This document shows positions 18,283-45,528 of a DNA stretch of 64,000 nucleotides, piece by piece. The stretch is taken from positions 160,001 through 224,000 of the IMG/VR virus record IMGVR_UViG_3300045988_138996. One strand, 5' to 3'. How positions within the stretch are numbered: position 1 is the stretch's first letter; the number at the start of each line of letters is the position of its first letter. The stretch is from a virus. Under the pieces are notes generated by a model, which saw only the letters and a list, made by a program, of their open reading frames with translations, was not told where the DNA came from and did no database searches. Both the position numbers and the translations under genes were made by a program.

Positions 18283-18305
18283 TTTTTATTATATAGGGGA
18301 GAACA

Positions 18306-18833
18306 ATGAGATTAATAAATGCATTAGCATTGTTATATAATATTGCTCCTCAAGCAGTCGAAACTTTCTTAACGATGTATACGATCATATTTTTTATGCT
18401 AATAATCGATACATTGTTAAGATTGTTCGCTCTTACTTTTTCGAAAAAACCTTTATGGCATTATCGAACTATTATCGATGTATTTTGGGGAGGCTGGGGA
18501 CAGCAAAAATCAAGCCGCGTATTTTATCGCGGCTTTCTCTTCAAATTATTCGAATATAGTGTTTTAAGTATTTTCGCATTTTTATTAGATGCAATTGTAA
18601 TTCCGTCGACTATCCATATGCTATATTTTCAGGATGTATTCGATATTATTGCATGGATATGTTATGGTTATATAGTATTGACCGAGTTATTTAGTTTTAA
18701 AGAAAACATGAAATTAATTCGTTATAATAACGAAATTATTAATAGTCTTCCGAAAGACGTAATCGATCGCATTACCGATGTCGACTTAAATGTTGTAAAG
18801 TTTAAATTACATGAGAAAAAAGGTAAGAAATAA
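18306..18833 (+). CDS. holin-like membrane protein (phage_holin_4-like)
   Basis: 175 aa with about 4 TM segments. Motif ...LTELFSFKENMKLI resembles the holin_4 (E)xxSIxEN signature. Confidence 0.5.
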   Translation: MRLINALALLYNIAPQAVETFLTMYTIIFFMLIIDTLLRLFALTFSKKPLWHYRTIIDVFWGGWGQQKSSRVFYRGFLFKLFEYSVLSIFAFLLDAIVIPSTIHMLYFQDVFDIIAWICYGYIVLTELFSFKENMKLIRYNNEIINSLPKDVIDRITDVDLNVVKFKLHEKKGKK

Positions 18834-29776: not shown

Positions 29777-29826
29777 AATCCTTCATATAATATAATAATA
29801 TTATATTATATGAAGGATTTTTTTAT
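29777..29826 (+). terminator. strong rho-independent terminator
   Basis: Perfect 20-bp stem AATCCTTCATATAATATAAT / ATTATATTATATGAAGGATT with a 3-nt loop, followed by 7 T. Confidence 0.85.
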
Positions 29827-32021: not shown

Positions 32022-32381
32022 ATGACTGTAATGAACGGCGCTCGAGAAATCAAGATAGTACTCTTTATACGCAAATTAATTAAGGAGCACAAAAAATACA
32101 TTAATTATCGCATCAGCGACGAAGGATTTATTGTTTTCATGGTGTTTAATTATTATTATGAGGTCATGAAACGGATTCATCCTAAAGCACAAGTATGGCA
32201 GCTAAAAAATACATTCGATGTATGTACCGTTATGCGACATAAGAAAATAAAATATAAACTAAGTAAAGAAGATAAACGATGTATTCTTATAGCATTTCAT
32301 CTGTTTAATCGCATAGAATATAATAAAACATTAGTCGATAATGTTATTGCTAATTTATTTAAGCTAAGAGAATATCATTAA
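32022..32381 (+). CDS. family-C paralog 7 (hypothetical)
   Basis: EIKIVLFIRKLIKEHKKYINYRISDEGFIVFMVFNYYYEVMKRIHP. Confidence 0.55.
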   Translation: MTVMNGAREIKIVLFIRKLIKEHKKYINYRISDEGFIVFMVFNYYYEVMKRIHPKAQVWQLKNTFDVCTVMRHKKIKYKLSKEDKRCILIAFHLFNRIEYNKTLVDNVIANLFKLREYH

Positions 32382-32410
32382 CCCGTAGCAACCTGTAGCT
32401 GCGGGTTTTC
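32381..32410 (+). terminator. rho-independent terminator
   Basis: ACCCGTAGC-AACCTGTA-GCTGCGGGT (one G.U pair) followed by TTTCTT. Marks the start of the G+C-richer island. Confidence 0.6.
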
Positions 32411-32807
32411 TTATATCTTATTATATCGTACATATATTCGCTATATAAGGGAAATTTTTGTGGTGTATATTTTTATAATGACGCGTTTTGTGTGATGTGT
32501 TTTTTATTTTTGTCTTTCTCTTTTTTTTGTTTTGTGTGAGGAAGGTTAGATTGTTAGGCAGTGGTTGTATTATCAATTATGCTTTGTAAATGAGAATGCT
32601 TATATAGGGCCAAATTTTGGTTTTGGATCAAAGGGGTAAGTGTTTTATATATAGGTGGCCTCGGAGCTAAAGTTCGCCCCCCCTGCTTTGATTCAGGGTG
32701 TTATTTGATGGAGAGCTTGGCCTCGAGACCGTACAGACATACATAATGATGTCTGCCATTTAATTATTAGTCTTGGGAAGACGTTAAAAGCAACCAGGAG
32801 GATTATT

Positions 32808-33086
32808 ATGAAAAAGACAGTAGCAACAGTAATGGTAGCAACAGTAGTAGGAATGACAATGTGGTTTGCAACACCAGTTGCACCAGATCACTACGAAATG
32901 CATGTTGTTAAAGGAGGTGAAACTATTACAAGCATCATAGAAGATGCTAATCGTAACACGGATGTCAACTATGACATTCGCGAAGCTGTTGCAACATCTG
33001 TTGCTAAATCAGCTAAGATGGAAGGAGGAGTGACAAGCAGATCAATCCATCCAGGAGAAAAGATTGCTGTTCCTATCTACAAGTAA
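32808..33086 (+). CDS. membrane-anchored LysM-like protein (YneA-like architecture)
   Basis: RBS AGGAGG. N-terminal TM segment VATVMVATVVGMTMWF. LysM-like HVVKGGETITSII...IHPGEKIAVPI. Confidence 0.5.
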   Translation: MKKTVATVMVATVVGMTMWFATPVAPDHYEMHVVKGGETITSIIEDANRNTDVNYDIREAVATSVAKSAKMEGGVTSRSIHPGEKIAVPIYK

Positions 33087-33172
33087 TTAGATAGGCTCAG
33101 TAACATAGTCCAGCTGTATGACTATAAACTATAGTAATGTATATCATTGTATGTCATAAGGAGGAAAAGATC

Positions 33173-33607
33173 ATGACAACAACAACTTATTTAAATTTAG
33201 AAACATTGGCAATCGAAACAAAGAATAGTGCAAGAGATTATATGGATCTCTTAGACTCTGCTCAAAAGTATTATGCCAAGAAAGGCATAAGAACTATGAA
33301 AGGAAGAATAGGAGATGTATGTTTCTTGCAAGAAAGGGAATGTAGGAATGTTCTTATGCTTGCAACAATGGATGGTCATACAAAATGTGACCTTAAAACA
33401 GTAACAGACAAGATTATGTCACTGCCTTACTATGCTGTAGCACGAGGCTATATGCCGGGTGTATTCCGCACATGGTCTCAGTGCAAAGATTCTACAGACG
33501 GTTTTACCGGCAGAAAGTACAAAAAATTTGCCGGTAGAGAAGCTGCCATCCAGTTTATGATAGATAACAATGCTCCATTAGTGAGCTATGATTATCTAAC
33601 AAAATAA
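33173..33607 (+). CDS. protein with C-terminal RNase H1 N-terminal (hybrid-binding / Cauli_VI) domain
   Basis: RBS AAGGAGGAA. YYAVARGYMPGVFRTWSQCKDSTDGFTGRKYKKFAGREAAIQFM (nt 33428-33559) fits the FYAVxxGxxxGIYxxWxxxxxxVxGxxxAxYKxFxxxxEAxxF signature. Confidence 0.65.
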   Translation: MTTTTYLNLETLAIETKNSARDYMDLLDSAQKYYAKKGIRTMKGRIGDVCFLQERECRNVLMLATMDGHTKCDLKTVTDKIMSLPYYAVARGYMPGVFRTWSQCKDSTDGFTGRKYKKFAGREAAIQFMIDNNAPLVSYDYLTK

Positions 33608-33631
33608 TTGTTTTTAGAGGAGGAATTCAAA

Positions 33632-34672
33632 ATGAAAAGTATGTTAGAATTAAAGAAAGCATTTGCAGCAACAAAAAAAGTTAATAATAGTGGTGATTGG
33701 TTGCAACATAAAGCAACTCTTCAAGAATTAAAAACAGCTAATATTAGATGTCTAATTATTAGCGAAGAATCTTGCATTCTCGATGTAGTTGGCGCAAATG
33801 TAACTGGTGCCATTACAATGGAAGATGTTAAAGAATCCGCTGTTGTAGTTAAGGGCAAAGGCGTTAATTTCGATGGAGACTATCGATTGACAGAAAAGTC
33901 GATGGCCAACGTCGAAAACATTATTGATGATCTTTTGCTTATTGTAGGGAACTTCAAAGAGAAAGAAGATGCATGTAATTCTTTTACATTTGAAGGAGAT
34001 GTATATGTACCAATCTCTTTATCGGCAAGTGCGTTAAGACAAGGAAAACGCTTTGCTGTTAAAGAAGAATTGTTAGATAAATGGTTAACCAAATTGAAAA
34101 AAGTTAACCATGGTATTGGTAGCTTTGAAGGAGAAAAGACTCTTAAGGTCGGAAAGGCGACTAAACTTTCTACATATGGCAACTTATGGTCTGCCAACGG
34201 TAAAGAATTCGTTGTCGACCTTAACGAATATTGCTTCATGATATTTGATAACATGGCAATATTCGGTACAGAAGATAACATGGATGGTCAATCATATCAT
34301 TCGCATTATGATTTTTGCGAGTTATATGGCTGTCCAAAAGATAAACCATTATATCTACAGGCTCGTGTTTCCGGATGTACTAAAACTGGTAGTTTGCCAG
34401 TTAAAAATATGTCCGGATTTTGGGCATTGGCAGCAGAGTGCAAACAATACTCTGTAATGTCTCTGTCTGAAGTAGACAGAGACTATTCTGGTGAAGAACC
34501 AGCTGTATGGATTGTCGGTAATCCATGCGGCAAATTATTATATGTAACCGATTTTAACGGCTTTAAAGCCGTCCCAGGTTACATAGATCCGAAGGAGAAC
34601 ACATTTAAAGTTCTTCAGATTATTGAATCGACGCAAGCAAAAGTGTCGAGTCAATTGATTCAACACATTTAA
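33632..34672 (+). CDS. candidate beta-like (lysine-bearing barrel) subunit of a split two-barrel RNA polymerase
   Basis: RBS AGAGGAGGAA. MDGQSYHSHYDFCELYG...LYLQARVSGCTKTGSLPV resembles the DGxGxIS...FQIRYGGYKGV signature of RdRP/YonO-type enzymes. Adjacent to the DFDTD-bearing gene. Confidence 0.45.
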   Translation: MKSMLELKKAFAATKKVNNSGDWLQHKATLQELKTANIRCLIISEESCILDVVGANVTGAITMEDVKESAVVVKGKGVNFDGDYRLTEKSMANVENIIDDLLLIVGNFKEKEDACNSFTFEGDVYVPISLSASALRQGKRFAVKEELLDKWLTKLKKVNHGIGSFEGEKTLKVGKATKLSTYGNLWSANGKEFVVDLNEYCFMIFDNMAIFGTEDNMDGQSYHSHYDFCELYGCPKDKPLYLQARVSGCTKTGSLPVKNMSGFWALAAECKQYSVMSLSEVDRDYSGEEPAVWIVGNPCGKLLYVTDFNGFKAVPGYIDPKENTFKVLQIIESTQAKVSSQLIQHI

Positions 34673-34697
34673 TTTAAATAATAAGAGGAGAATAATC

Positions 34698-35867
34698 ATG
34701 AAAAAACAATATCTAGTAGAAAAATTAACAAAAGAAACTGTTAAACAATTTGAGTCCTACACTGAGGGCTCATTTGGAGGCACTGGTATAGATGCCGCCA
34801 TTCTTGCTGATGGTAGAGTTGCATATGATAAATATGTATTCTCTGCTAAAGCAAATAGCTTAGCAAAGAACATGAGCAAAGTAATTAAGTCTTTAAAGAT
34901 GTCTGGAGATTCTGACTCCAGATATCTTAGAGGTGCAGGTGATACTGTATGGATGTTTTCTCAAGGCATTCTTGCAGATGATGAAGTATTGGTAACAAAT
35001 AAACGTTTGTTGCAACATGGCGAAGCATATGTTGTACGTTTCCCTCATAGCGCAAGAAGTGAATTTGCACACGTTCGTATGCTCGGCAAAGCTGAGTATA
35101 TCGAACGTATTGAAGAAAGCGACTTAAAGCCCGCATTTAAGATGTTGGCAATTGAAGTTGCTAAAAGCTTACCAGAAACAACTTTCTTATGTTCTGGTAG
35201 TTCTGTATTTAAAGGTTTAACTGGTGGATCTGATTTCGATACAGATGGCTTTATGTTCCTAGTTGGCGAGGATGCTCAAATCTTCGCTGACTGGAAACAA
35301 AGATCTGTCGATATTCCAGACGATATCGGTGAAGCTTCTTCTGTTACTTTTAATAATTTCTCTGAGCTAATGGAAGGCGTATTTAACGCTAACATTAGTA
35401 CAGGTAACACAGACGTTGGTGAGTTTTGTGTCGCGACAAGCACAGCAATCACAGTATTGCAAAACTTGGACAATGCAGAACTTATTAAAAAATTGCAAGA
35501 AAACATTGCTAAAGAATTTGGTAATGAATTCGATGGCAACGTAGAATATTCTCGTTATTATGTTGGTGATGAAGATATTGCAATGGAGGACGTGCGTAAT
35601 GCTAAAATTGAAAGCATTACAATGTCTTTCGTTGCGTCTGATCGCAGTGCAGAATCTATTAAAGCATATTTAGAAGATGTGCTAGAAGCTGCACCTGCAG
35701 TAATTGGCATGATTATAGATAGTGCTAAAACAGGCTTAAAGGTGTGGGATCCATTAAGCTTCTTGTTCGACGGCATCAAACAAGCACGTCGATCTGCTCC
35801 TCCTAAAATTAAGTGGAACGAAGAAGAATCTAAATTCTTCGTAGAGGAGGATAGCAGAGTTAAATAA
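34698..35867 (+). CDS. candidate catalytic (beta-prime-like DPBB, DxDxD) subunit of a split two-barrel RNA polymerase
   Basis: RBS AAGAGGAG. YVVRFPHSARSEFAHVRMLG, then FLCSGSSVFKGLTGGSDFDTDGFMFLVGED. Compare NPCLHPGDVRVL and SGSDLDGDxYFVxWD (RdRP), NRxPTLHR and NADFDGD (beta-prime). Confidence 0.55.
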   Translation: MKKQYLVEKLTKETVKQFESYTEGSFGGTGIDAAILADGRVAYDKYVFSAKANSLAKNMSKVIKSLKMSGDSDSRYLRGAGDTVWMFSQGILADDEVLVTNKRLLQHGEAYVVRFPHSARSEFAHVRMLGKAEYIERIEESDLKPAFKMLAIEVAKSLPETTFLCSGSSVFKGLTGGSDFDTDGFMFLVGEDAQIFADWKQRSVDIPDDIGEASSVTFNNFSELMEGVFNANISTGNTDVGEFCVATSTAITVLQNLDNAELIKKLQENIAKEFGNEFDGNVEYSRYYVGDEDIAMEDVRNAKIESITMSFVASDRSAESIKAYLEDVLEAAPAVIGMIIDSAKTGLKVWDPLSFLFDGIKQARRSAPPKIKWNEEESKFFVEEDSRVK

Positions 35868-35913
35868 TTAATTCATTGTGCGACCGACACGTTAATCCGG
35901 CAAGGAGTTCAAA

Positions 35914-36873
35914 ATGAAAAAACAACAAGAGGTTATTTATTTAAAAGATACAATGTACGAATTACAGTTAGAGGCTGCAGTTCGTGCAGTAGAGGAAATT
36001 AATGTTGTACTAGAAGCTAATGGTATCGCAGGTAATATTGAAAAGTTGCCAGCTAAAGGCTTCTTTGATACATACAACAAAATCTGCGCAGATTTGAGCA
36101 AGTCCGAATCTATCGATATCAAAGGCTTAGATATCGAAGGTAACTTTAGCAAAGCTAAAGAATACATTGCGAACACTATTCGCATGTATTTAGGCGATGC
36201 GGAAGACAAATATGAAGCCGCTAAAAACAGTGGCTTCAATTTTGCCAGCTCTGTATTAGAGTACGAGCTTGTAATGAACAGTATCACAAGTGGTGCTATC
36301 TGGCGCAGAAAAAATGGGGAACAAGATTTAGCAAGTTCTCCATTAATGAAAGACATCGATGTGTTCTGCATCGATCCTTCCAACAACAACATTCTTGACG
36401 GCGATCAAGTGGTGTTTGAAAACGGTCGTTCTTTAGATGGCCGTTTCTTCACATCTACTTCTGTTACTGGTGTGCAACCAGTGTTTAGAAGAGAAGATGG
36501 TGGTCTGTTCATCGTTGTTCATATTCTCGAAACATTAGAGGCGCCTACAGAAGAACCTATCTTCGCTGTTCGTAGTAGCGATAGTGAAAATGTATCCAAA
36601 AATATTTTCTTGGCGCAAGAAAAGGGTTATAAATTCTTCTTGCTTCCTAATAGTAAAGGGAAGCAAGGAGACGGTTTGTATGTAGAATCTATGAAAGAAG
36701 GCTCTGCAGGTAAACTTATTAAGATCATCTCCTGTGAAATTGTAGGAGATAAAACTTTTATTTCTCACTTCTGTGGCGAAGTAAAAGTTGACGATGTGTT
36801 ATTCAACGTAATTAAGAAAGATGGTTACGGTGAAGATATTAAGTCTGCCACATTGTTGTTACGTAAAGCATAG
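35914..36873 (+). CDS. hypothetical protein, possible third subunit or accessory of the polymerase
   Basis: 319-aa ORF with RBS AAGGAG, co-directional and adjacent. No motif recognised. Confidence 0.5.
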   Translation: MKKQQEVIYLKDTMYELQLEAAVRAVEEINVVLEANGIAGNIEKLPAKGFFDTYNKICADLSKSESIDIKGLDIEGNFSKAKEYIANTIRMYLGDAEDKYEAAKNSGFNFASSVLEYELVMNSITSGAIWRRKNGEQDLASSPLMKDIDVFCIDPSNNNILDGDQVVFENGRSLDGRFFTSTSVTGVQPVFRREDGGLFIVVHILETLEAPTEEPIFAVRSSDSENVSKNIFLAQEKGYKFFLLPNSKGKQGDGLYVESMKEGSAGKLIKIISCEIVGDKTFISHFCGEVKVDDVLFNVIKKDGYGEDIKSATLLLRKA

Positions 36874-36943
36874 TAGCAGATCCCCCTTCGGGGCCCGCTA
36901 GGGATTAAGGCAAAGAATAATAAACATCTCTCTTCAATCCTTA

Positions 36944-36971
36944 ACGGTTGTCCCGTCTTTTTTATTTTTTT
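36944..36971 (+). terminator. weak terminator-like element
   Basis: ACGG-TTGTC-CCGT followed by CTTTTTTATTTTTTT. An upstream CCC-UUCG-GGG hairpin lies at 36884-36893. Confidence 0.4.
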
Positions 36972-37004
36972 ATAGGGCGTGAACTCTGCTATCTAAGGAT
37001 AGTA

Positions 37005-37022
37005 GGGCTCCGCTCCGAAATC
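37005..37022 (+). promoter_or_regulatory. TCC-loop hairpin motif, copy a (GGGC-TCC-GCTC-CGAAATC)
   Basis: Member of the 8-copy motif family. Intergenic, 80 nt upstream of ATG 37102. Confidence 0.6.
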
Positions 37023-37101
37023 TTTTACGAGGGTATTTGGCCCTCAGTATTTTATATTCATGGCGACCGTTCCATGTAAAAATACCGGCAGAGGAGATAT
37101 C

Positions 37102-37422
37102 ATGAAATTAGTATCTAATGTTAATTACAAAAAAAATGACGTATTCAACTTATTCGTTCTTTTAAATAAAATGGACGGATTTTTCGTCGGCGAGCCAATT
37201 GAAGGCATTCAAGCCGACGTAACTCAAATTTCCTTTGAAGATAACGATAATTTGTTTATCGTTATCGAAACATATTTCAACGGTAAAAAGTTGAGAACAT
37301 TTTATTTCGATTTCAGTGGCAAAGAAATTTCCACCGAAGTACGTACAGAGGACGTGACTATAGCGTCCAAAGTATTATCTCAATTAGAAGAAGACTTCGC
37401 AGATTACTGCGAAGAATTATAG
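37102..37422 (+). CDS. hypothetical protein
   Basis: Start at ATG 37102 after GAGGAG (MKLVSNV...). 106 aa. Confidence 0.55.
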   Translation: MKLVSNVNYKKNDVFNLFVLLNKMDGFFVGEPIEGIQADVTQISFEDNDNLFIVIETYFNGKKLRTFYFDFSGKEISTEVRTEDVTIASKVLSQLEEDFADYCEEL

Positions 37423-37434
37423 GAGGAATTTACC

Positions 37435-37806
37435 ATGAAATATAAATACGATGGTAAAAAATACTGTGTTTCTAATTTTCTGGATAATGATAATTTATTG
37501 TCTCGTCAAGTTTGGCACTCTTTGAGTGCTAAGCCTGGCGAAGGCAAAAATTTAACAGTTCAAAAAGTAAAGGAGCATACAGTTGTGTGCTCTTATTTCA
37601 CTTATGACAGAGGTGCTCAAGACTTTGTTGAAGTCATGGAAGAATACCCAATGGAAGATGTTGCTCTCACTGGAGATGCGGCAGTATCGTTAGAGTTTAA
37701 TAAGATATTAAGCTCTTTAAATACTGAAACAGCAGAATTATTAGAAGACTTAGTGTCTTATAAAGAACATTCTGCTGCTATAGCAGGATATAATGGCTGT
37801 ATTTAA
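37435..37806 (+). CDS. hypothetical protein
   Basis: 123-aa ORF after AGGAGGAA. Confidence 0.55.
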   Translation: MKYKYDGKKYCVSNFLDNDNLLSRQVWHSLSAKPGEGKNLTVQKVKEHTVVCSYFTYDRGAQDFVEVMEEYPMEDVALTGDAAVSLEFNKILSSLNTETAELLEDLVSYKEHSAAIAGYNGCI

Positions 37807-37812
37807 TATATT

Positions 37813-37863
37813 AAGCTTTAGTTATGGATTATATTATATCTGTAGCTAAAGCTTTATTTTTTT
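37813..37863 (+). terminator. rho-independent terminator
   Basis: AAGCTTTAGTTA ... TAGCTAAAGCTT forms a 12-bp stem with one G.U pair, followed by TATTTTTTT. Confidence 0.65.
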
Positions 37864-37876
37864 ATAAATATTGTTC

Positions 37877-38040
37877 GGTGACAGGTGTCCGCCCTATTAT
37901 ATATTTATTAGTATAGTGTTGGATAATACTATAATACTAATAAGAGAGGGCGGCACCGTATTCGACTTCCGACGCTTGCAACGTTTCGCTATCGCTTAGG
38001 CGTTGCTGCGTCTCTGGTCGTCGAATACTCACCTGTCACC
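37877..38040 (+). ncRNA. candidate structured RNA (three-way-junction-like, about 164 nt)
   Basis: Closing stem GGTGACAGGTG (37877-87) / CACCTGTCACC (38030-40). It encloses arm 1, CCGCCCT (37889-95) / AGGGCGG (37947-53), and arm 2, GTATTCGAC (37958-66) / GTCGAATAC (38020-28). Arm 2 has inner stems GACGC/GCGTC and GCAACG/CGTTGC. Confidence 0.5.
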
Positions 38041-38147
38041 TTTGTCTTAATTTCGGCAGTGTCCCTTCGGGTCTTTACTGCGGAATATATTCTTTCTTGT
38101 GTTATTTAGCCGATCCGGCGGTAGTAGTTTACTAGTGTGTTCTGTAT

Positions 38148-38166
38148 GACGCTCCGCGTCGAAATT
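38148..38166 (+). promoter_or_regulatory. TCC-loop hairpin motif, copy b (GACGC-TCC-GCGTC-GAAATT)
   Basis: Compensatory stem relative to copy a. 58 nt upstream of ATG 38224. Followed by ATGAGGG-TATTTT-CCCTCAT plus a T-run. Confidence 0.6.
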
Positions 38167-38223
38167 ATTTATGAGGGTATTTTCCCTCATTTTTCTTTTA
38201 TTATTCATAGGAGGAGAAAAACT

Positions 38224-38628
38224 ATGAAAACCGTTAAAGTTATTAAAGTTGATATGCCTTGTCAAAAAAGAAGAAATCCTATTCTTGATGTTATTAAGGT
38301 TGAAGTTAAAAAGGTTGAAGAGCCTGTTAAGGACAAGTTCTTGAGCCATCCGTTATTTAAAGATTATTTTGTTCGTGAAGCTGGAGTATTTGCTCCAGAA
38401 ACCGAATGCTGGAGATTTTCTGTTCCTGGTCATGATGATATGGAAGTTTCTGTAATCAGAAGTTCTATGACTTATGGAGGCAGTAAGGGACTGTTTGAAC
38501 TAGCCATGTTGCGTAACGACAAGTGTTGTTATGACACACCTATTACTAATGATGTACGTGGCTGGTTAGAAGTTGAAGATGTGTTGGACATTCTAGAAGA
38601 TGTTCAACGCATTTACGAGGAGGCGTAG
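38224..38628 (+). CDS. hypothetical protein
   Basis: Start at ATG 38224 after AGGAGGAG (MKTVKVIKV...). 134 aa. Confidence 0.55.
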   Translation: MKTVKVIKVDMPCQKRRNPILDVIKVEVKKVEEPVKDKFLSHPLFKDYFVREAGVFAPETECWRFSVPGHDDMEVSVIRSSMTYGGSKGLFELAMLRNDKCCYDTPITNDVRGWLEVEDVLDILEDVQRIYEEA

Positions 38629-38629
38629 C

Positions 38630-38917
38630 ATGAAATTCATACTTTTCGGTGAGGCTATGCCGAAAACCGAATTTAATGCTGTGGACTGCTACCACGCGTT
38701 AGAATACGCTTTGGGCACCTTCTTCAAGGATTGTGTCGTTGCAGAAAATGTGACATCACTTGAAGAAGGCGTCGTAGCGGTCTGTATTCGTTCATGGGCA
38801 AATATCGGTTCTGAAGAAGAGCCGGTGTCATATGAACGGCATCCGGTGTATTTGCTAGAAGAGGCAAGATATAACAAATTATCGCCTCATACTCTAGCAA
38901 TCATAACTGGAGAATAG
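38630..38917 (+). CDS. hypothetical protein
   Basis: Start at ATG 38630 after GAGGAGG (MKFILFGE...). 95 aa. Confidence 0.55.
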   Translation: MKFILFGEAMPKTEFNAVDCYHALEYALGTFFKDCVVAENVTSLEEGVVAVCIRSWANIGSEEEPVSYERHPVYLLEEARYNKLSPHTLAIITGE

Positions 38918-38943
38918 CCCCCCGCCGGGGCTAAACCTTCTAC

Positions 38944-38995
38944 GGGGTACTATGTCGACATTTACGGCATGGTACTCCTGTTGAAGTTTTTGTTT
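38944..38995 (+). terminator. terminator-like hairpin
   Basis: GGGGTACTATG / CATGGTACTCC forms an 11-bp stem. Two G.U pairs work only for + strand RNA. Followed by a T-rich tail GTTTTTGTTT. Confidence 0.5.
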
Positions 38996-39014
38996 GCGAC
39001 TCCGTCGCGAAATT
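38996..39014 (+). promoter_or_regulatory. TCC-loop hairpin motif, copy c (GCGAC-TCC-GTCGC-GAAATT)
   Basis: Compensatory stem. 56 nt upstream of ATG 39070. Confidence 0.6.
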
Positions 39015-39069
39015 TTTCACGAGGCAATTTCGCCTCACATTCGTTATTCTACATGGAAGGAGAAAAGTT

Positions 39070-39231
39070 ATGCCAGTAGAAACAGTTTATAATTATCATT
39101 TAATAGATGTTGATAGAGAAATGTTCTCCGTTACAACATCTGATACTACTTCCGAAGTACTCAGAGAGTACCAAGGTTATGTATTAGTCGAAAGAGAAGT
39201 AATAGGCTATAGAGCAATCTTAGCCGACTAA
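39070..39231 (+). CDS. small hypothetical protein (53 aa, not in ORF track)
   Basis: GGAAGGAG RBS 6 nt upstream. MPVETVYNYHLIDVDREMFSVTTSDTTSEVLREYQGYVLVEREVIGYRAILAD. Bracketed by motif c and a hairpin. Confidence 0.55.
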   Translation: MPVETVYNYHLIDVDREMFSVTTSDTTSEVLREYQGYVLVEREVIGYRAILAD

Positions 39232-39236
39232 TAATG

Positions 39237-39275
39237 AGGTGCTGGTAAGAAATTGCCGGCACCTTGCTTTAATTT
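39237..39275 (+). terminator. terminator-like hairpin
   Basis: AGGTGCTGG / CCGGCACCT with one G.U pair, followed by TGCTTTAATTT. Confidence 0.4.
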
Positions 39276-39316
39276 AGTATTTAATATTTCATTATAAACA
39301 TGAGGAGGATATTATC

Positions 39317-39463
39317 ATGTTAAAGAAACAATTCGTACAATGGCTTAATTCTTTTTACGCGGAATACCCTGTAACATTCCGCGTGTTCTGGTTCCTAGTG
39401 GGCTGGACTGTAGGCAGTGCAGTAAAGATGGCAGTGTTGCAACATCGCCTTAACAAACGCTAG
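39317..39463 (+). CDS. small membrane protein (48 aa, not in ORF track)
   Basis: GAGGAGG RBS. MLKKQFVQWLNSFYAEYPVTFRVFWFLVGWTVGSAVKMAVLQHRLNKR has one TM segment. Confidence 0.5.
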   Translation: MLKKQFVQWLNSFYAEYPVTFRVFWFLVGWTVGSAVKMAVLQHRLNKR

Positions 39464-39503
39464 GCGATAGAAGGTTTCGCTGGAGGGTTAACTTCTGAAG
39501 TTT

Positions 39504-39521
39504 CCCCTCCGGGGCGAAATC
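39504..39521 (+). promoter_or_regulatory. TCC-loop hairpin motif, copy d (CCCC-TCC-GGGG-CGAAATC), orphan
   Basis: Fully compensated stem. No ORF follows. A terminator-like hairpin starts 6 nt downstream. Confidence 0.5.
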
Positions 39522-39526
39522 TCCTG

Positions 39527-39563
39527 TGACCCTCTATTAATAGCTAGGGTCATATTTATTTTT
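39527..39563 (+). terminator. terminator-like hairpin after motif d
   Basis: TGACCCT ... AGGGTCA followed by TATTTATTTTTATT. Confidence 0.5.
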
Positions 39564-39694
39564 ATTATAAAGCTTTATATAAGCTACCGTAGGTGCTATG
39601 TACTCATAATACCTCCCTTTAATAAGATACACAACAACCTAATGTGCATCTACGGTAGTTGATATAAGGTTTTATATACCTTACGAGATTGAGA

Positions 39695-39712
39695 GGGCTC
39701 CGCCCCGAAATC
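39695..39712 (+). promoter_or_regulatory. TCC-loop hairpin motif, copy e (GGGC-TCC-GCCC-CGAAATC)
   Basis: 205 nt upstream of ATG 39917. The intervening leader folds into several hairpins. Confidence 0.6.
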
Positions 39713-39916
39713 TTTCATGGGGCCTTCTGTGTGGAGGTCCCTTTCATACTTTTCTCCTCTTCTCCAGTAGTTAGGTCTGCTGGAGATATGAGGGCTAGAT
39801 GAGCATTGACTTATCTAGCCTTGATATCTCTTGCAAGTGTGTGTTGATGCAAGAGGAGATTTTATTTTCACTATGGCACGTGAAGCCATAGTACTTTTAA
39901 GAAGGAGGACATTACA

Positions 39917-40633
39917 ATGTCTAAGAAAACAGCTTTCGCAACAATTACTGCATTTTTATTCGGTTCCAATGCTAACGGCTGGAGCCAAATGCTATCAGCA
40001 GTAGTAGCTGGTAAAAATGGTGTGCGTGACACCAAACCAACTCACGTAACAGTAGCAGGTCAAAGCTACGTAGGTCAAGGTATTGACGCATTAGCACAGT
40101 TGTTGGAACTGTTCGCCAACAAATCTGTGAATTATGCACGTTTTACAGCAGAGGTTATTACATCCGATGCTGTAGCAATTCGTGCATACAGCATTATGAA
40201 AGGCTTGAAAGATGGTTTAACACCTGCAAAGGTTGCTGACCATGTAATGAAACAAGCCGACTCTGCGGAAGACCGCGAGTGCTTTAAACGTTTCGCAATG
40301 GCGTTGAAAGATTGCCAACAACAAAACGTGATGCTTCGTATCTCCCGCTTGTCTCAAGAGCACAGCTATGCTCTTGAAATCCCCGAAGGCGTAGAAGTAA
40401 ACGCCGGGGATATTATCAAGTTCGACCGTGGCGTGTCTGAAGATGGCGTGAAGTTGGCATATGGAGTGCAATCCAGCTACGCTTATGAATTAGCTAAGGT
40501 CAATGATGAGCTTAAAGCTCTCAGACCTAAAAACACTCCAAACAGCAAGCATCGTATGGCTTGCATTAATGGTACTCTTAATCTCATTCGTGAGATTAAG
40601 GCTGAAGAAGTGTCTGCAGAAGACCTTATCTAA
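39917..40633 (+). CDS. hypothetical protein
   Basis: 238-aa ORF after AAGGAGGA. Codon usage is G+C-richer than the rest of the window. Confidence 0.6.
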   Translation: MSKKTAFATITAFLFGSNANGWSQMLSAVVAGKNGVRDTKPTHVTVAGQSYVGQGIDALAQLLELFANKSVNYARFTAEVITSDAVAIRAYSIMKGLKDGLTPAKVADHVMKQADSAEDRECFKRFAMALKDCQQQNVMLRISRLSQEHSYALEIPEGVEVNAGDIIKFDRGVSEDGVKLAYGVQSSYAYELAKVNDELKALRPKNTPNSKHRMACINGTLNLIREIKAEEVSAEDLI

Positions 40634-40637
40634 CATT

Positions 40638-40662
40638 GGGGGCATTAGCCCCCTTTATTTTT
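40638..40662 (+). terminator. rho-independent terminator
   Basis: GGGGGC-ATTA-GCCCCC followed by TTTATTTTTATT. Confidence 0.8.
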
Positions 40663-40684
40663 ATTAATAAAGAGGAGGCCCACA

Positions 40685-41182
40685 ATGGCAACTTTTAATC
40701 TTAAACACGCAAATCCTGAAGTTATTAGTTATATGGCTGAAAAAATTCAGGTAGAATATCAAGGTACCGTTGAAGAAATCGACGGCGGTATTAAAGTAGA
40801 ATGTTCTGACGAACATTTAAAAGACATTACGGACGCTTTTTCTAGAGTGAAACGTAATACTACAGTTTCAGGCTGGACTAAAACAGCCACTAAGTTTATT
40901 GGTCGTCAGACCAATACTATTAAAGACGCTGGCATCGGTGCCGTAGGCCTAGGTGCTAAAGGTTTGTTCGGAGGCTTGAAAAAGGTATCCGAATTGGCTA
41001 TGGGTGCGACTAGTGTTATTATCAATGAAGGTAAAGAAGCTTGGAAAGAAGCTAGCGTTAGCGATGAGCTTCGTAACTTGAAGAAGAGCTTCGGCAGTAC
41101 TGGTAGCGATGAAGAAGGCATTGAAATCATTAAAGATAATGCTGAAACTACTGTAAATAAAACTGCCGGTGCAGAAGGCTAA
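40685..41182 (+). CDS. hypothetical protein (Gly/Lys-rich centre)
   Basis: 165-aa ORF after AGAGGAGG. Confidence 0.6.
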   Translation: MATFNLKHANPEVISYMAEKIQVEYQGTVEEIDGGIKVECSDEHLKDITDAFSRVKRNTTVSGWTKTATKFIGRQTNTIKDAGIGAVGLGAKGLFGGLKKVSELAMGATSVIINEGKEAWKEASVSDELRNLKKSFGSTGSDEEGIEIIKDNAETTVNKTAGAEG

Positions 41183-41199
41183 TAATTTCTGCGGACGAT

Positions 41200-41375
41200 T
41201 GCTATTAACCGTCGGTAAATATTAATAGCATATAGCCCTAGTTGTCGAGAGCGAGTGGGACGACAACCTTATTCCGACCCTTAAAAGATGTTCTTGGTCG
41301 GGCTAATAAGATATGAACATCTAAGGTTTATAAGCGGGTGATGTCTGACGCTTATAATCTAAAATGCAGACATCA
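41200..41375 (+). ncRNA. structured 3' region with two tandem pseudoknot-like modules
   Basis: Hairpins TGCTATTAA/TTAATAGCA and GTTGTCG/CGACAAC. PK1: CCGACC (41274-79), AGATGTTC (41286-93), GGTCGG (41296-301), GAACATCT (41315-22). PK2: TATAAGCG (41329-36), TGATGTCTG (41339-47), CGCTTATA (41349-56), CAGACATCA (41367-75). Confidence 0.45.
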
Positions 41376-41380
41376 TAATA

Positions 41381-41436
41381 GGGTTTAGTCTAGAGGGGCA
41401 GGATTTGCTCTCCTAGGCTAAACCTTTATTTTTTCT
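41381..41436 (+). terminator. rho-independent terminator
   Basis: GGTTTAGTCTAG... / ...CTAGGCTAAACC long stem with a G.U pair, followed by TTTATTTTTT. Confidence 0.65.
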
Positions 41437-41654
41437 TATGTTGAATATACATTTAGGTGATACTGTCGTTACAGCGTTAGCTAAATGTATATTTTTTTAT
41501 AATTCGCGAAAAGCATATCGCCTCAGTACGTATGGCGTAATTCGGGTGTTAGCTTTAGCGAAAGTCCATTTTTTTGGACACTTTTGGCAGTGGGCTAATT
41601 TTTTTAGTGACTGCTTTTTTTATCGGAACGATTACGTTTCCGATCGCCAAGAAT

Positions 41655-42215
41655 TATTAAGGAGCGAGCGTCAGCGAGCGACTGTATATTATTTTATATA
41701 TAGTAAGCCCGAGCGAAGCGAGGGCGTATATATCAAGTTCTCTGTGTACTCTCTTCTAAAGAGAGTAGTTTTGTATTTATTTAGTATAGTCTAAGGCGAG
41801 CGAAGCGAGCCGTATATTCTTTGTTTACTTTCTTTTTAAGAAAGTAATTATGTTTATTATTTATTATTAGTAGTTCTCTGCTGTCTCTCTTGTAAAGAGA
41901 GTAGTTATATTATTAGTATTTTATATGTATAGATTCTCTGTTATCTCTCTTATCAAGAGAGTAATTAGTTATTTTATATATATGTATCATAATAGTATTA
42001 ACGCAGCGAGCGAAGCGAGCGGAGTATGTATTATGTAGTATGTAGTTATTCCCGAAGAACGAGGAACGCTAGTGACGAGTGAATTGTAGTGTCCTAGCGT
42101 AAGCGACGATCATAAGAGTATATATTGTATATTATATATAGGGCGAGCGAGGGGAGCGTCAGCGACCGGAGCGAGCATAGTATTATTATATAATATATTA
42201 TAGGGAGCATAGCGA
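41655..42215. repeat. GC-box repeats (GAGCGAAGCGAG-type) each followed by GTAT(A/G)TAT
   Basis: GCCC-GAGCGAAGCGA-GGGC-GTATAT (41707), GGC-GAGCGAAGCGA-GCC-GTATAT (41795), CGC-A-GCGAGCGAAGCGA-GCG-GAGTATGTAT (42002). Degenerate copies at 41661, 42141 and 42203. Confidence 0.6.
41735..41966. repeat. four copies of a 35-nt unit with a CTCTCTT-NNN-AAGAGAG hairpin
   Basis: Hairpins at 41747-67, 41825-47 (variant ACTTTCTT-TTT-AAGAAAGT), 41885-901 and 41945-61. Flanked by TTCTCTG... upstream and TA(G/A)TT downstream. Confidence 0.65.
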
Positions 42216-43483
42216 CCGGAGTATATATATAGTCTTATAGGAGCTAGATAGGCCAATAAGGATTGGTGAATATTTAGTATATCGTGATATAGTATATCGT
42301 ATTATACTATAGTAGTATATAGTAAATATGTGAGATCCTTATTTACAGTAAAAAGAAAAATTCGGCCTTGAAAATTTACAGGTCGTAGACCGGAAAATTT
42401 TAAGTATTTTCCGCCCGGGGATATCTATATCATATATATAGTATAAGAAGGAACGTAGTGACTGGTAGATATATATTATGTTAATAATATAGTATATTTT
42501 CTGCCGTCGGTATTTTGTTAAAAGAGAGACTACTATATATAATAATTTCCGCCTAGGATATTATGGTTTATATATAATATGTTTTTAGTTAATGTTTTTC
42601 CTGTATGCATACGCATACAGATATTAAAAACTTTTAGGGTGGGATATCTTATAATAATATTGAACGTCAGTGAAATGTTATTATAGATTTAAATCTATAT
42701 TAGATATAATTTTAATGAGAGCTATTAATGTGAAGAATAGGGAGCGCCGCGAATCTATTCAGCTATTAAAATTCTTAGTCGACACGATAGTATAGTATGG
42801 TAGAGATCGTGTCGATAGGTTACGAGTGCTAACGAGTTATATGTAGAATTCGTTGAGATGAAGGATGTTATCGATGAGCCCGCGAAGAGAAACATCGTTC
42901 TTTAGAATTCGTAACAATATATCTAATGCGTTTGTGTATTATCAATATATATCAAGAAAATATATACTGATGTGTTTGAGTGAAGCTTGCGAAAAGAAAA
43001 ACGCAATCAATTTTTATATATCGTAACGAAGCCCGTAAGGGTTCGTATTAGTATTATATATAGCTTATGAATATAAGCGTATGTATATAACTATTAATAC
43101 GAATTATACCAAAGTATTAGAAGTTAGTAAGCGTCTAATAAGTAGGTGGTTTTTGTTTGGGATCCGCCGTTATCTTAGTATTTCATTTACTAGCTAAGGT
43201 ATTTAAAAGTCCCTTGCGTTTATTTTAGTCGAGTTATTTTATATATAATATTATATATAATAATAACGAAGAGCCATTACTGTTAAGAATGGATAGTAGA
43301 CGAAATTGGGAACGGGCCCCAATAATAGTTATTATATTCTCTTAGAGAATATATAACGTCAATGGTTCGTCGTGTACGATCCTTTTCGAGTTTCGCAGAA
43401 AATTACGTAAGTAAGAGTTTGTAGCATTTGTAAAATGGGACAACATTTTGTTAGTATTCTCGCTATGTTACACATAGCGACAC

Positions 43484-43513
43484 AAAAAAAGACCCCGAAT
43501 TAATTTCGAGGTC
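43484..43513 (-). terminator. minus-strand rho-independent terminator
   Basis: On the - strand, GACCTCGAA-ATTAA-TTCGGGGTC pairs perfectly with one G.U, followed by 7 T. On the + strand there is a C.A mismatch and no T-run. Confidence 0.6.
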
Positions 43514-43608
43514 GTTATATATTGTTTACTAAAAGCGATGAACTACGTTCATCGGTATATTACTCATGTTTAAGTATAAGTTATTAATAATTTAAAAAAA
43601 TAATTCAG

Positions 43609-43633
43609 AAAATAAAAAAGACCCCGAAGGGCC
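43609..43633 (-). terminator. minus-strand rho-independent terminator
   Basis: On the - strand, GGCCC-TTCG-GGGTC (UUCG loop, one G.U pair) followed by TTTTTTATTTT. Confidence 0.55.
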
Positions 43634-43811
43634 ATTTTTATATAAGTATTTTTTTAATATTCAAAGCGGTGCGAAGCGAAGCGTAGCAAACCGTGGAGCG
43701 TAGCGGAACGGTGAACTGCGTTCACCGGTATATTACTCTGTTTAGATACGTCGTTAATCAAAAATAAAAAAATATTTTTTATTTAATTCTATTATATATA
43801 TAACAAGCAAT

Positions 43812-43853
43812 AAAAAAAACAGCCTCAGATTTTTATGACCTGGACTGTTTTGT
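43812..43853. terminator. bidirectional terminator-like hairpin
   Basis: An A8 run, an imperfect ACAGCC...GGACTGT stem, then TTTTGTGTG. Confidence 0.35.
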
Positions 43854-44007
43854 GTGTGTAAAAACGGAAGCGGTGTAACGTAGTTACACCGGTATATTAC
43901 TCAAGTTAGGTATATCATTAATCAATTTTGTAAAAATAATTAAATATTCATTATTAATGCATAAAGTAAGACAGGGGTATTTTTAAGTTAAAAAAATAGA
44001 AAAAATT

Positions 44008-44035
44008 AAAGTCAGATAATATCTGGCTTTTTTTA
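44008..44035 (+). terminator. plus-strand rho-independent terminator
   Basis: AAAGTCAGAT-AAT-ATCTGGCTTT, where the G.U pair works only on the + strand, followed by TTTTT. Confidence 0.55.
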
Positions 44036-44470
44036 ATTTTAATGTCTGGTTTAGTATATATAGGAAACAATAAAACATAATATACAGAATATGTATATTT
44101 ATGAATACGAGCTTTTTTCAAAAGCGTTCGCCTACCATAGCTTACTCCGAAAAGTTTAAATGAAACGTCGTAAGCGTACTAGTGACGCGGGTTTTTAATA
44201 ATTTTATATTTTAAAATTATGTAGGGTTAGGAACGAGGTATATAAAAATTGCTCCCTTAATAGTTCTTATTTATCTCTTATATATACTATATATATAATA
44301 TAAAAGGATTATTTTTTTATATAGTCCGCCGTCTCCTCACGAGCGCCAACCTGAGTTATATTTAGCTATATATATAGGTATTGCTATAGCTTTATTTAGC
44401 TCTGTATATACGGCTAGACCTATTTAAAACATCTTACCTGTATAGGTAGCTCCCTTGGGGGGTGGGGGGA

Positions 44471-44759
44471 GTCCGCAACACTCTCAAGTTTGTTATTTTT
44501 AAGTAAAAACTAGTAAAAATTGTTTATGGCTATTAAAACGATTAAGAGTTGGTAACACTCTGTATTTGCTGTTAATTAACTAAAAATGGCTGTTTTTATA
44601 TATACAGCTATTAAAATCATTTTAAGTCCGCAACACTCATAATGTCTCCCTTTTTACACAAAAACAGCTTATTTTGCAATAACTAAGTTTCGTATTTTTG
44701 CAGTATTTTATAATATTTTAGTTTATGACTATTAATATCTATTAAGTCCACAACATTCA
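44471..44759 (+). repeat. four iteron-like direct repeats (GTCCGCAACACTC core)
   Basis: GTCCGCAACACTC at 44471 and 44627, GTTGGTAACACTC at 44548, GTCCACAACATTC at 44747. Three of them are preceded by (G)CTATTAA(A/T)A..ATT(TT)AAG. Spacing is 77, 79 and 120 nt. Confidence 0.6.
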
Positions 44760-44803
44760 TAAAAACGTCTTAAATAGTTAAAAACAATATATTTTCATAT
44801 TAA

Positions 44804-44831
44804 ATGTATTTGGTCATATGTATTTGGTCAT
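44804..44831 (+). repeat. perfect tandem duplication ATGTATTTGGTCAT x2
   Basis: Read directly from the sequence. Followed by several hundred nt of TA-rich low-complexity DNA. Confidence 0.8.
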
Positions 44832-45264
44832 ATAATATATTTAATTAATATAGTGTATTGCTATATATATCATTAATCTGTTATAGCAACTTTATTAGTA
44901 TTTAATAGCTATATATAGTCATATATATAGTTTATTGTTATATTATATATATGGTTTAATATATATTGTCATATATATGTATATAGTTAACGTATTATAT
45001 TATAGTTTATCATTAGTATAGTATTAACAGTTATATTAGTATTTAGTATTATGTTATTAGTAGTATTAGTGTTATTATATATATAGTAAGAGTAATAATA
45101 AAGAGAAACTATTAAATGAAAAGATGCGGGCGATTTTGTATATTGTTTTTTATATCAATCTAATGAATTGCCGCATTTGATTTTTATATGTATGATATAT
45201 TTATCAGCATATGATTAATAACTGTATATGGTTTTATATATATAAGGCTAATGTCATTAAGTAC

Positions 45265-45282
45265 GTGCTCCGCACCGAAATC
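45265..45282 (+). promoter_or_regulatory. TCC-loop hairpin motif, copy f (GTGC-TCC-GCAC-CGAAATC)
   Basis: Compensated stem. 46 nt upstream of ATG 45328, the first gene of the small-gene array. Confidence 0.6.
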
Positions 45283-45327
45283 TCCCGTAGTCCTTTTTTA
45301 TTATATAGGAATTAATGAGCGTAGAGA

Positions 45328-45528
45328 ATGAATCAATATTTAGTCGATGCTATTGTCGATCATGATGATTGGATACGGTATATTAGACCAAGGAAGATGT
45401 GTTATTCTGACGATATAAGCGAGAAATATAACCTAGATAATATAATCGTAGCATATAGCAGGAATTATTATAAATATAGTGCCGAATTATATTTACAGTA
45501 TTTAATGTATTTAATGGTAATAGAATGA
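45328..45528 (+). CDS. YY-tail small protein family member
   Basis: 66 aa. C-terminus ...YKYSAELYLQYLMYLMVIE. Confidence 0.55.
   Translation: MNQYLVDAIVDHDDWIRYIRPRKMCYSDDISEKYNLDNIIVAYSRNYYKYSAELYLQYLMYLMVIE

Follow-up and report, generated by a model that had tools for sequence, protein, structure and literature searches.

A Conserved Non-coding Block with Putative Small Structured-RNA Genes in a Large Human-associated Phage

Within a 64-kb viral window (the whole stretch of 64,000 nucleotides analysed here, that is, positions 160,001 to 224,000 of the IMG/VR virus record IMGVR_UViG_3300045988_138996), positions 41183-44483 probably constitute an island of small structured-RNA genes, a reading to which we assign a probability of roughly 0.68. 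The island lies between the last late/structural operon and an array of small genes, and, judged by sequence comparison, it would be neither junk nor a degenerate gene nor an assembly joint. Gene saturation is the rule in phage genomes, whereas about 1.5% of this one (~230 kb) is non-coding sequence that is held tighter than the adjacent proteins and survives down to 44% protein identity. A first-pass annotation had described a repeat-dense region without open reading frames (ORFs) at 41440-45300, and had offered genome ends, a replication origin, a packaging site and a cluster of small RNAs as candidate readings. The last of these is supported for 41183-44483 by a match to an Rfam family, by compensated pseudoknots with strand-specific G.U pairs, and by a constraint above that on the flanking proteins. 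At least three RNAs with compensated folds and strand-specific G.U pairs are predicted on the plus strand, that is, the E1 double pseudoknot, the U pseudoknot and OTKONC. Only OTKONC is already catalogued, and the other modules are new folds.

Conservation and coding potential

The stretch has two parts, a conserved non-coding block (41183-44483) and a hypervariable AT-rich spacer (44484-45100). The conserved part begins directly past the stop codon of a gene for a protein of 165 amino acids (aa), rather than at 41440 as annotated before. On the plus strand, which carries all the genes of this window of low GC content (~30%), 41792-45324 is the sole ORF-free gap longer than 450 nucleotides (nt), and the two smaller gaps are located at 32379-32708 and 39461-39883. 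The absence of genes noted in the first pass is thus borne out, and it extends to the relatives, where no conserved ORF was found in the block among 16 full-length relatives, nor in two further clades. Ordinary genes in related genomes had been named beforehand as the observation that would speak for a degenerate copy; none occurs here, the sole exception being a 142-aa ORF that three relatives carry in the spacer. At the left edge, the 118-aa ORF already doubted as implausible does exist (41438-41794), but it varies between 71 and 133 aa or is missing in the relatives, and it has no PHROGs family.

The relatives are uncultivated contigs from human metagenomes, up to 219-236 kb in length, and the window belongs to a family of human-associated phages with genomes of roughly 220-236 kb. 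When the region was compared by megablast with 50,697 phage records, no close DNA match appeared, and the best identity of the window polymerase to INPHARED is only 35%, with no isolate phage close. The alignment of the clade to which the window belongs comprises 33 contigs, 16 of which span the full region, and in all 16 a gene-free interval of 3.7-4.1 kb separates the 165-aa gene from the first small gene. Clades 2 and 3 were recovered by a scan with the conserved 3' motif of OTKONC, while a metagenome scan with the flanking protein returned the same clade only. The homologue of the 165-aa flanking protein has 44% aa identity in clade 2 and 75% in clade 3. In a host search by exact-pattern scans of 185,579 bacterial genomes, 0 matches were obtained.

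In the 33-contig alignment, the nucleotide diversity (pi) of 41378-44350 is 0.055-0.19, compared with 0.15, 0.09 and 0.37-0.43 at the first, second and third codon positions of the flanking genes, respectively. The block evolves 3-7 times slower than the third codon positions of the neighbouring genes, and three sub-blocks with diversity of no more than 0.07 (41378-41650, 43001-43292 and 44051-44350) are tighter even than second codon positions. The variation lacks the codon periodicity of genes, since the median of its periodicity ratio is only 1.04 within the block, while the adjacent coding sequences reach 1.8-3.2, and invariant sites occur at all three phases. As slow evolution is here combined with the lack of periodicity, 41183-44483 is under strong selection of a kind other than protein-coding. 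The block is single-copy in all clades, and colinear across the three at 60-72% nucleotide identity, with the flanking protein down to 44% aa identity. Clades 2 and 3 show the same layout, in which a gene of ~160 aa is followed by a 3.6-kb ORF-free interval and then by small genes, and the interval ranges from 3.6 to 4.1 kb across clades. This colinear layout, kept across three clades, indicates that the non-coding block is old.

Could the region be coding after all, by recoded stop codons, by many micro-proteins, or as decayed genes? We regard this as extremely unlikely. Readthrough of TAG or TAA does open frames of 169-199 codons, but reassigning any single stop codon yields no convincing gene, and stop-codon recoding was rejected. 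In addition, an ORF of 63-79 aa near 42.8-43.0 kb recurs in several relatives, and a periodicity ratio of 1.77, itself the weakest-of-all signal, falls at this place. However, the phase of the periodicity is out of register with this ORF, which holds single-base indels, and clades 2 and 3 have no ORF at the equivalent place. The 53-aa ORF at 42865-43026 was excluded by single-base indels and the lack of codon periodicity.

The contigs also bear on the suggestion that the virion DNA has its physical ends in the region, or that the assembler collapsed and joined a terminal repeat there. The region lies between late genes and small genes of early appearance in a one-directional genome, and it has an AT-rich, repeat-bearing spacer; both would fit such an arrangement. 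In addition, 12 of the 27 IMG/VR contigs, as well as many ENA contigs, end inside the region. However, these ends are scattered from 41269 to ~44770 with no common site, and the region is crossed by at least seven contigs of 149-236 kb, in which it lies at differing internal positions. The block is single-copy and colinear, as described above, and the rest of the window contains no repeat of it. The genome-end suggestion is therefore left unsupported, and we consider it highly improbable. The scattered breaks fit the behaviour of assemblers at internal repeats and at near-identical blocks of co-occurring strains, and the island accounts in this way for the fragmentation of these phages here in metagenome assemblies.

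Putative RNA modules of the plus strand

The catalogued module is located at 43293-43458 on the plus strand, where the OTKONC RNA model (Rfam RF03053; from the motif set of Weinberg et al., 2017, PMC5737381) matches over its full length (model positions 1-159 of 159) with a score of 160.2 bits, above the gathering score of 141.4 (E = 2.9e-26). Homologues are present at the same place in all three clades; for example, contigs L126, L112 and L019 score 168, 160.6 and 157.4 bits, respectively, while L173 scores 113.6 bits (E = 2.8e-17), below the gathering score. A perfect hairpin described before at 43333-53 is a helix within this match. Among other Rfam families, none matched 40.5-46 kb at E <= 1 beyond the chance-level sau-63 and ncr1015, and OTKONC was not mentioned in the paper texts returned by the literature search. 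The exact 20-nt OTKONC core GGTTCGTCGTGTACGATCCT also occurs in two unrelated viral contigs, L033 (2316-2335) and L049 (1869-1888), where it lies inside a 301-aa ORF; these occurrences were set aside as chance, with no further similarity and no Rfam match.

Directly upstream, at 43102-43239 on the plus strand, covariation predicts the U module, a new pseudoknotted RNA. It is composed of a hairpin (43117-23/43132-38), a helix with an invariant U.G pair (43145-49/43164-68) and a crossing helix (43156-59/43204-07). The helices of this pseudoknot are 100% paired in 21 distinct sequences from three clades, four pairs show compensatory changes, and the covariation score was reached by 0 of 500 shuffles. 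It was also observed that TTTCCGCC-type boxes recur at 42404-42565, 43156-43175 and 44318-44335, and that a short palindrome (CCCGGG, CCGTCGG, CCTAGG, GGATCC) comes after each of them; for the box within the U module, CCGCC pairs with GGTGG.

The third module, E1 (41183-41377, plus strand), is a predicted 3' untranslated region (3'-UTR) element located between the stop codon of the 165-aa gene and a strong terminator. It consists of two hairpins (41200-41230 and 41241-41267) and two tandem H-type pseudoknots, PK-A (41274-41322) and PK-B (41328-41375). A blind search recovered at least one pseudoknot in each of the 20 haplotypes, and both in 16 of them, with a chance of 0.037 per shuffle. The stems are kept by full compensation in four haplotype classes, for instance by the change from CCGACC/GGTCGG to TAGTTA/TAACTA, and single changes produce U.G or G.U pairs on the plus strand (e.g., U.G to U-A, or A-U to G.U), never A.C. 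The pseudoknots were checked sequence by sequence, as the MAFFT alignment misaligned divergent haplotypes. In five contigs (L009, L012, L013, L014 and L021), E1 is cleanly missing, and the stop codon is followed directly by the terminator. Because of these contigs, E1 is taken to be an accessory cassette that behaves as insertable.

Further putative structures fill the plus strand between these modules. Terminator-like hairpins with T-runs are located at 41382-41435, 41444-41500 and 41588-41622, with small hairpins at 41565-41582 and 41622-41644. This part, 41378-41650, is among the most conserved stretches (pi = 0.060, 71% of the columns invariant), and the outer stem of the hairpin at 41444-41493 is retained in clade 3. 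The central conserved modules (42030-43100) contain hairpins at 42391-42413, 42601-42620, 42779-42815 and 43024-43046 (the last with a GTAA loop), as well as long invariant unpaired stretches such as 42901-42936. Compensatory changes affect three pairs in the hairpin at 42779-42815, and also occur in that at 43024-43046.

Hairpins, repeated modules and DNA-level alternatives

The abundance of hairpins is well above chance. With a perfect hairpin defined by a stem of at least 7 and a loop of 3-12, and with dinucleotide shuffles as the null, 13 perfect hairpins were found in 41183-44484 against 1.6 +/- 1.3 in shuffled sequences, and most coding windows of equal size contain one or two. Terminator-like sites in the region number 9, with 1.9 expected. 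The four hairpins singled out in the first pass (42601-20, 42779-815, 43024-46 and 43333-53) are all in place, as are the G-run (44457-44470) and the TA-rich tracts (44.85-45.1 kb). The repeat families are likewise real, namely D1 (four copies, 41736-41975), D2 (four copies, 44470-44785) and D3 (three copies, 43550-43941), but they should not be called unrelated, since they interleave in a fixed order. It should be noted that the density of perfect hairpins is already raised from ~33 kb on. In 33000-41200 there are 3-9 perfect hairpins per kb within coding sequence, compared with ~1 per kb elsewhere, and the GC content is also raised (0.36-0.43). The ORF-poor part at 38630-39916 (ORFs of no more than 57 aa) contains ~10 perfect hairpins, e.g., TAGCCCCCCGCCGGGGCTA at 38915-38933, and the relatives align from ~39311 onward, not at 39105-39311. 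The RNA-rich zone may start upstream of the two genes at 39917-41182.

The D1 array (41660-42030, plus strand) has four units, with hairpins at 41747-67, 41825-47, 41885-901 and 41945-61. Each unit reads TTCT[Y]T, a fixed 4-nt linker, (A/T)CT[Y]TCTT, a loop of 3-5 nt and AAGA[R]AG, and three to four units are present in every clade, alternating with mini-hairpin cassettes of the GCGAAGC type. Across the three clades, ~275 instances were compared, and all have C/C/G or T/T/A at the variable base. Read in parallel, the upstream strand gives the purine arm in pyrimidine code, and this order and polarity are those required by an intramolecular Py.Pu-Py triple helix; the alternative antiparallel pairing would have only 4 base pairs. 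It is a speculative and, in our view, rather doubtful idea that the D1 units and their clade counterparts fold as such pyrimidine.purine-pyrimidine triple helices, with UUCU(Y)U in the major groove of the CU(Y)UCUU/AAGA(R)AG hairpin, so as to protect very short phage RNAs from exonucleases or, as DNA, to stall polymerases. The three-way covariation could be partly inherited through duplication of the units.

The cassettes themselves, GA[GA]CG(N1-3)AG[CT]GA, were located by a motif scan at 41666, 41711, 41798, 42008, 42064, 42154, 42205, 42451, 42662 and 43696. All 10 are on the plus strand and 0 on the minus strand of the region, and two occur elsewhere in the window. Within the type GA-RC-G(N)A-GY-GA, the R and Y positions covary (GC with AT), and the copy number differs among close relatives through indels of 11-21 nt.

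The D3 zone (43484-44040) is read on the minus strand. It contains three units, each composed of an 8-9-bp hairpin and the invariant box GTATATTAC (43536-65, 43709-38 and 43871-902), each with an A-run and a GC hairpin to its left (43491-43513, 43620-43633 and 43816-43851), and its right part contains a bidirectional terminator (44008-44036). Three units are found in every clade, with covarying stems and varying loops. Twenty distinct versions of the A-run-preceded hairpins were compared, and their one non-Watson-Crick pair is A.C in 15 versions and G.T in 3. With the A-runs, this excess of A.C would make them intrinsic terminators of the minus strand, with G.U pairs in the hairpin and a U-run behind it. 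The D3 zone most likely encodes three minus-strand transcripts of 70-115 nt, convergent on the rest of the genome. A sigma-70 promoter reading of GTATATTAC on the minus strand was dropped, as the spacer of 19-20 nt is too long. The D1 and D3 copies, which are only 60-80% alike and irregularly spaced, do not form a CRISPR array; as to a solitary-repeat RNA anti-CRISPR, the scans of bacterial genomes mentioned above gave no match.

To the right follows the V module (44055-44200, within 44055-44350), whose helix 44140-45/44170-75 is compensated between clades (GCTTAC/GTAAGC, CTCCC/GGGAG and GCCAA/TTGGC). Its strand leans minus, and for 44051-44350 (pi = 0.070) the minus-strand alifold energies are lower. 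A 27-nt box at 44322-44348 is kept in all clades. The right border of the conserved block, at 44450-44483 on the plus strand, is formed by a G-run hairpin (CTCCC...GGGAG around GGGGGGTGGGGGG) and the first D2 copy; the relatives are conserved up to 44483 and diverge thereafter.

How would such an island operate? The modules would be made as short stable transcripts, protected by GC-rich starting hairpins and by terminator hairpins at their ends, and the AU-rich TATA linkers between modules would act as promoter or processing sites. The RNAs would then act in trans on specific partners, which would be host or phage proteins or RNAs. Sequence-specific recognition is suggested by the invariant loops and unpaired stretches. 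A further effect of the three convergent minus-strand units and the bidirectional terminators would be to keep the island insulated from the small genes downstream.

Several observations weigh against an RNA island. Sigma-70-like sites occur at chance level (29 against 27.5 in shuffles), and although 16 of the 19 window copies of TATATATAG lie within the region (4.7 expected window-wide), this sequence may be merely the end of the linkers. Antisense matches of the island to the rest of the window (~60 kb) number 3, with 5.2 expected. The sequences of clade 1 vary so little that a strict covariation screen retains only 9 helices. Over all consensus hairpins, a crude count gives 37 G.T against 38 A.C pairs, that is, no bias, and the strand calls therefore rest on individual modules. 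Finally, GCGAAGC is known as a very stable mini-hairpin of DNA, and the D1 register equals that of the textbook intramolecular DNA triplex, as in single-strand DNA triplexes of the Sklenar-Feigon type.

The last two points, together with the lack of a global G.T bias, favour the alternative that the block acts as DNA, i.e., as a cis region whose hairpins form in single-stranded or supercoiled DNA, such as a T5-like injection stop or pause site, priming signals, or N4-type hairpin promoters. The closest non-RNA analogue is the set of untranslated repeat regions of phage T5, which are dense in repeats, inverted repeats and palindromes, are better conserved than nearby ORFs and lie beside the pre-early genes (bioRxiv 10.1101/866236). 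The island shares the richness in repeats and palindromes, the higher conservation than neighbouring ORFs and the adjacent small early genes. However, the injection stop signal model of Davison involves paired DnaA boxes and a location in the long terminal repeat (bioRxiv 10.1101/866236), whereas DnaA boxes are not enriched here. The number of TTWTNCACA sites in the window is 8, against 8.0 expected, with two single boxes in the region. The D3 hairpins, with loops of 3-4 nt followed by a fixed box, recall N4 promoters, but the latter have stems of 5-7 bp, 3-nt loops and conserved loop purines, while D3 has stems of 8-9 bp and varying, unconserved loops (TAC/TGC/GTA/TTC/TGTC). In addition, most of the conserved sequence is unique rather than made of repeated binding sites, one module belongs to an Rfam RNA family, and compensated pseudoknots with conserved G.U pairs are signatures of RNA. 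Consequently, we consider action as DNA unlikely, and prefer the island of structured-RNA genes.

The AT-rich spacer and comparison with known systems

The hypervariable spacer (44484-45100) behaves quite differently from the block. Its diversity is 0.31-0.43 with 30-41% gaps (0.43 and 41%, respectively, for 44484-44800), and it is close to neutral. It contains TATA tracts, iteron-like D2 repeats (44470, 44547, 44625 and 44745) and two copies of a 14-nt tandem repeat ATGTATTTGGTCAT (44804-44831), with 2-4 repeat copies among the relatives and analogous ACACT-type repeats in clade 3. The 142-aa ORF mentioned above lies in the spacer of L010 (13977-14405), L019 and L026, equivalent to ~44600-45100 of the window, and has no PHROG match. 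Because these three relatives carry an ORF that is missing in the window, the spacer is a site of gene gain or loss. The leader before the first small gene (45101-45327, plus strand; ATG at 45328) is moderately conserved, with a diversity of 0.20, and ends in TTTTTTATTATATAGGAATTAATGAG.

The most likely content of the spacer is DNA that controls the small genes. That it alone forms a DNA control region, such as an iteron origin, a packaging site or an early-promoter array, is a tentative possibility, and it is compatible with an RNA island next to it. Several direct repeats beside an AT-rich tract were found in the spacer only (four D2 copies and the 14-nt tandem at 44470-44831, AT-rich to 45100). 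The D2 copies are spaced by 77-120 bp, the tandem repeat varies between 2 and 4 copies among relatives, the A+T content is ~75-80%, and the small genes follow directly downstream. The repeat cores differ between relatives and clades, as would be expected for sites co-evolving with a binding protein. However, the other hallmarks of an iteron origin, that is, DnaA boxes, a turn of the GC skew or an adjacent initiator gene, were not found. The spacer contains no DnaA boxes, the cumulative GC skew rises monotonically through it, its diversity is near neutral with many indels, and no initiator or terminase gene was recognised among its neighbours by PHROGs or Pfam. The first-pass suggestion of an origin or packaging site thus finds no positive support in the conserved block, with neither DnaA enrichment nor a turn of the GC skew, and persists only as a possibility for the spacer.

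With PHROGs and Pfam, a DnaB-like helicase, a RecJ-like nuclease, a Pol III alpha-type polymerase and tail proteins were recognised in the window, while most other window proteins were assigned no family and only a few replication and tail proteins could be named. Some features elsewhere in the window are also of note. The gap at 32379-32708 contains two TATATAGG(G) boxes (32601 and 32646), followed by the GC-rich, hairpin-forming GTGGCCTCGGAGCTAAAGTTCGCCCCCCC, and it may hold a small RNA or a promoter like those of the island. The genes at 18306 and 45328 each have the same TATATAGG(G) 10-20 nt before their start codon (18290-18306 and 45302-45328, respectively). The arrangement resembles a promoter starting at the G-run, which is the sole hint that the box is a promoter. 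A literature search for TATATTAC as a known phage promoter returned nothing usable. Right after a 396-aa gene, a 20-bp perfect AT-rich palindrome with a T-run (29777-29819) forms an unusually long terminator-like hairpin.

The locus offers several new folds, namely a tandem-pseudoknot 3'-UTR element, an OTKONC-adjacent pseudoknot module, possible triple-helix hairpins and convergent minus-strand units. Among known systems, it can be compared with the clusters of tRNA and stable-RNA genes of large phages such as T4, which are likewise multi-kb ORF-free blocks of short structured RNA genes with AT-rich spacers, placed between gene modules. The tRNA region of T4 carries two stable RNAs. In contrast, ARAGORN found 0 tRNA or transfer-messenger RNA (tmRNA) genes in the window and 15 relatives, tRNA models gave no match at E <= 1, and the modules of the island are new folds. 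Another parallel is provided by the promoter-stem-loop (PeSL) cassettes of T4-type phages, which flank small early protein genes and carry sigma-70 early promoters. They share with the island an AT-rich promoter-like box joined to a GC-rich stem-loop, in numbers that vary among relatives, but the cassettes of the island have no genes between them and a sigma-70 signal not above chance. Should the RNAs have host factors as targets, the island would match, at the RNA level, the protein modules by which large phages take over their hosts.

The D1 units, if they are triple helices, would be miniature counterparts of the eukaryotic and herpesviral RNA triple-helix stability elements and, to our knowledge, the first such element family in a bacteriophage. 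Compared with the ENE and A-rich tract of PAN and MALAT1, they share the Py, Py, Pu strand order and polarity, with three positions changing together; they differ in being smaller (6 triples) and tandem, in having C+.G-C triples, and in coming from a phage of bacteria. As for OTKONC, the orphan motif gains a genomic setting, in which the catalogued part is 166 of ~3300 conserved bases and the neighbouring modules are not in Rfam.

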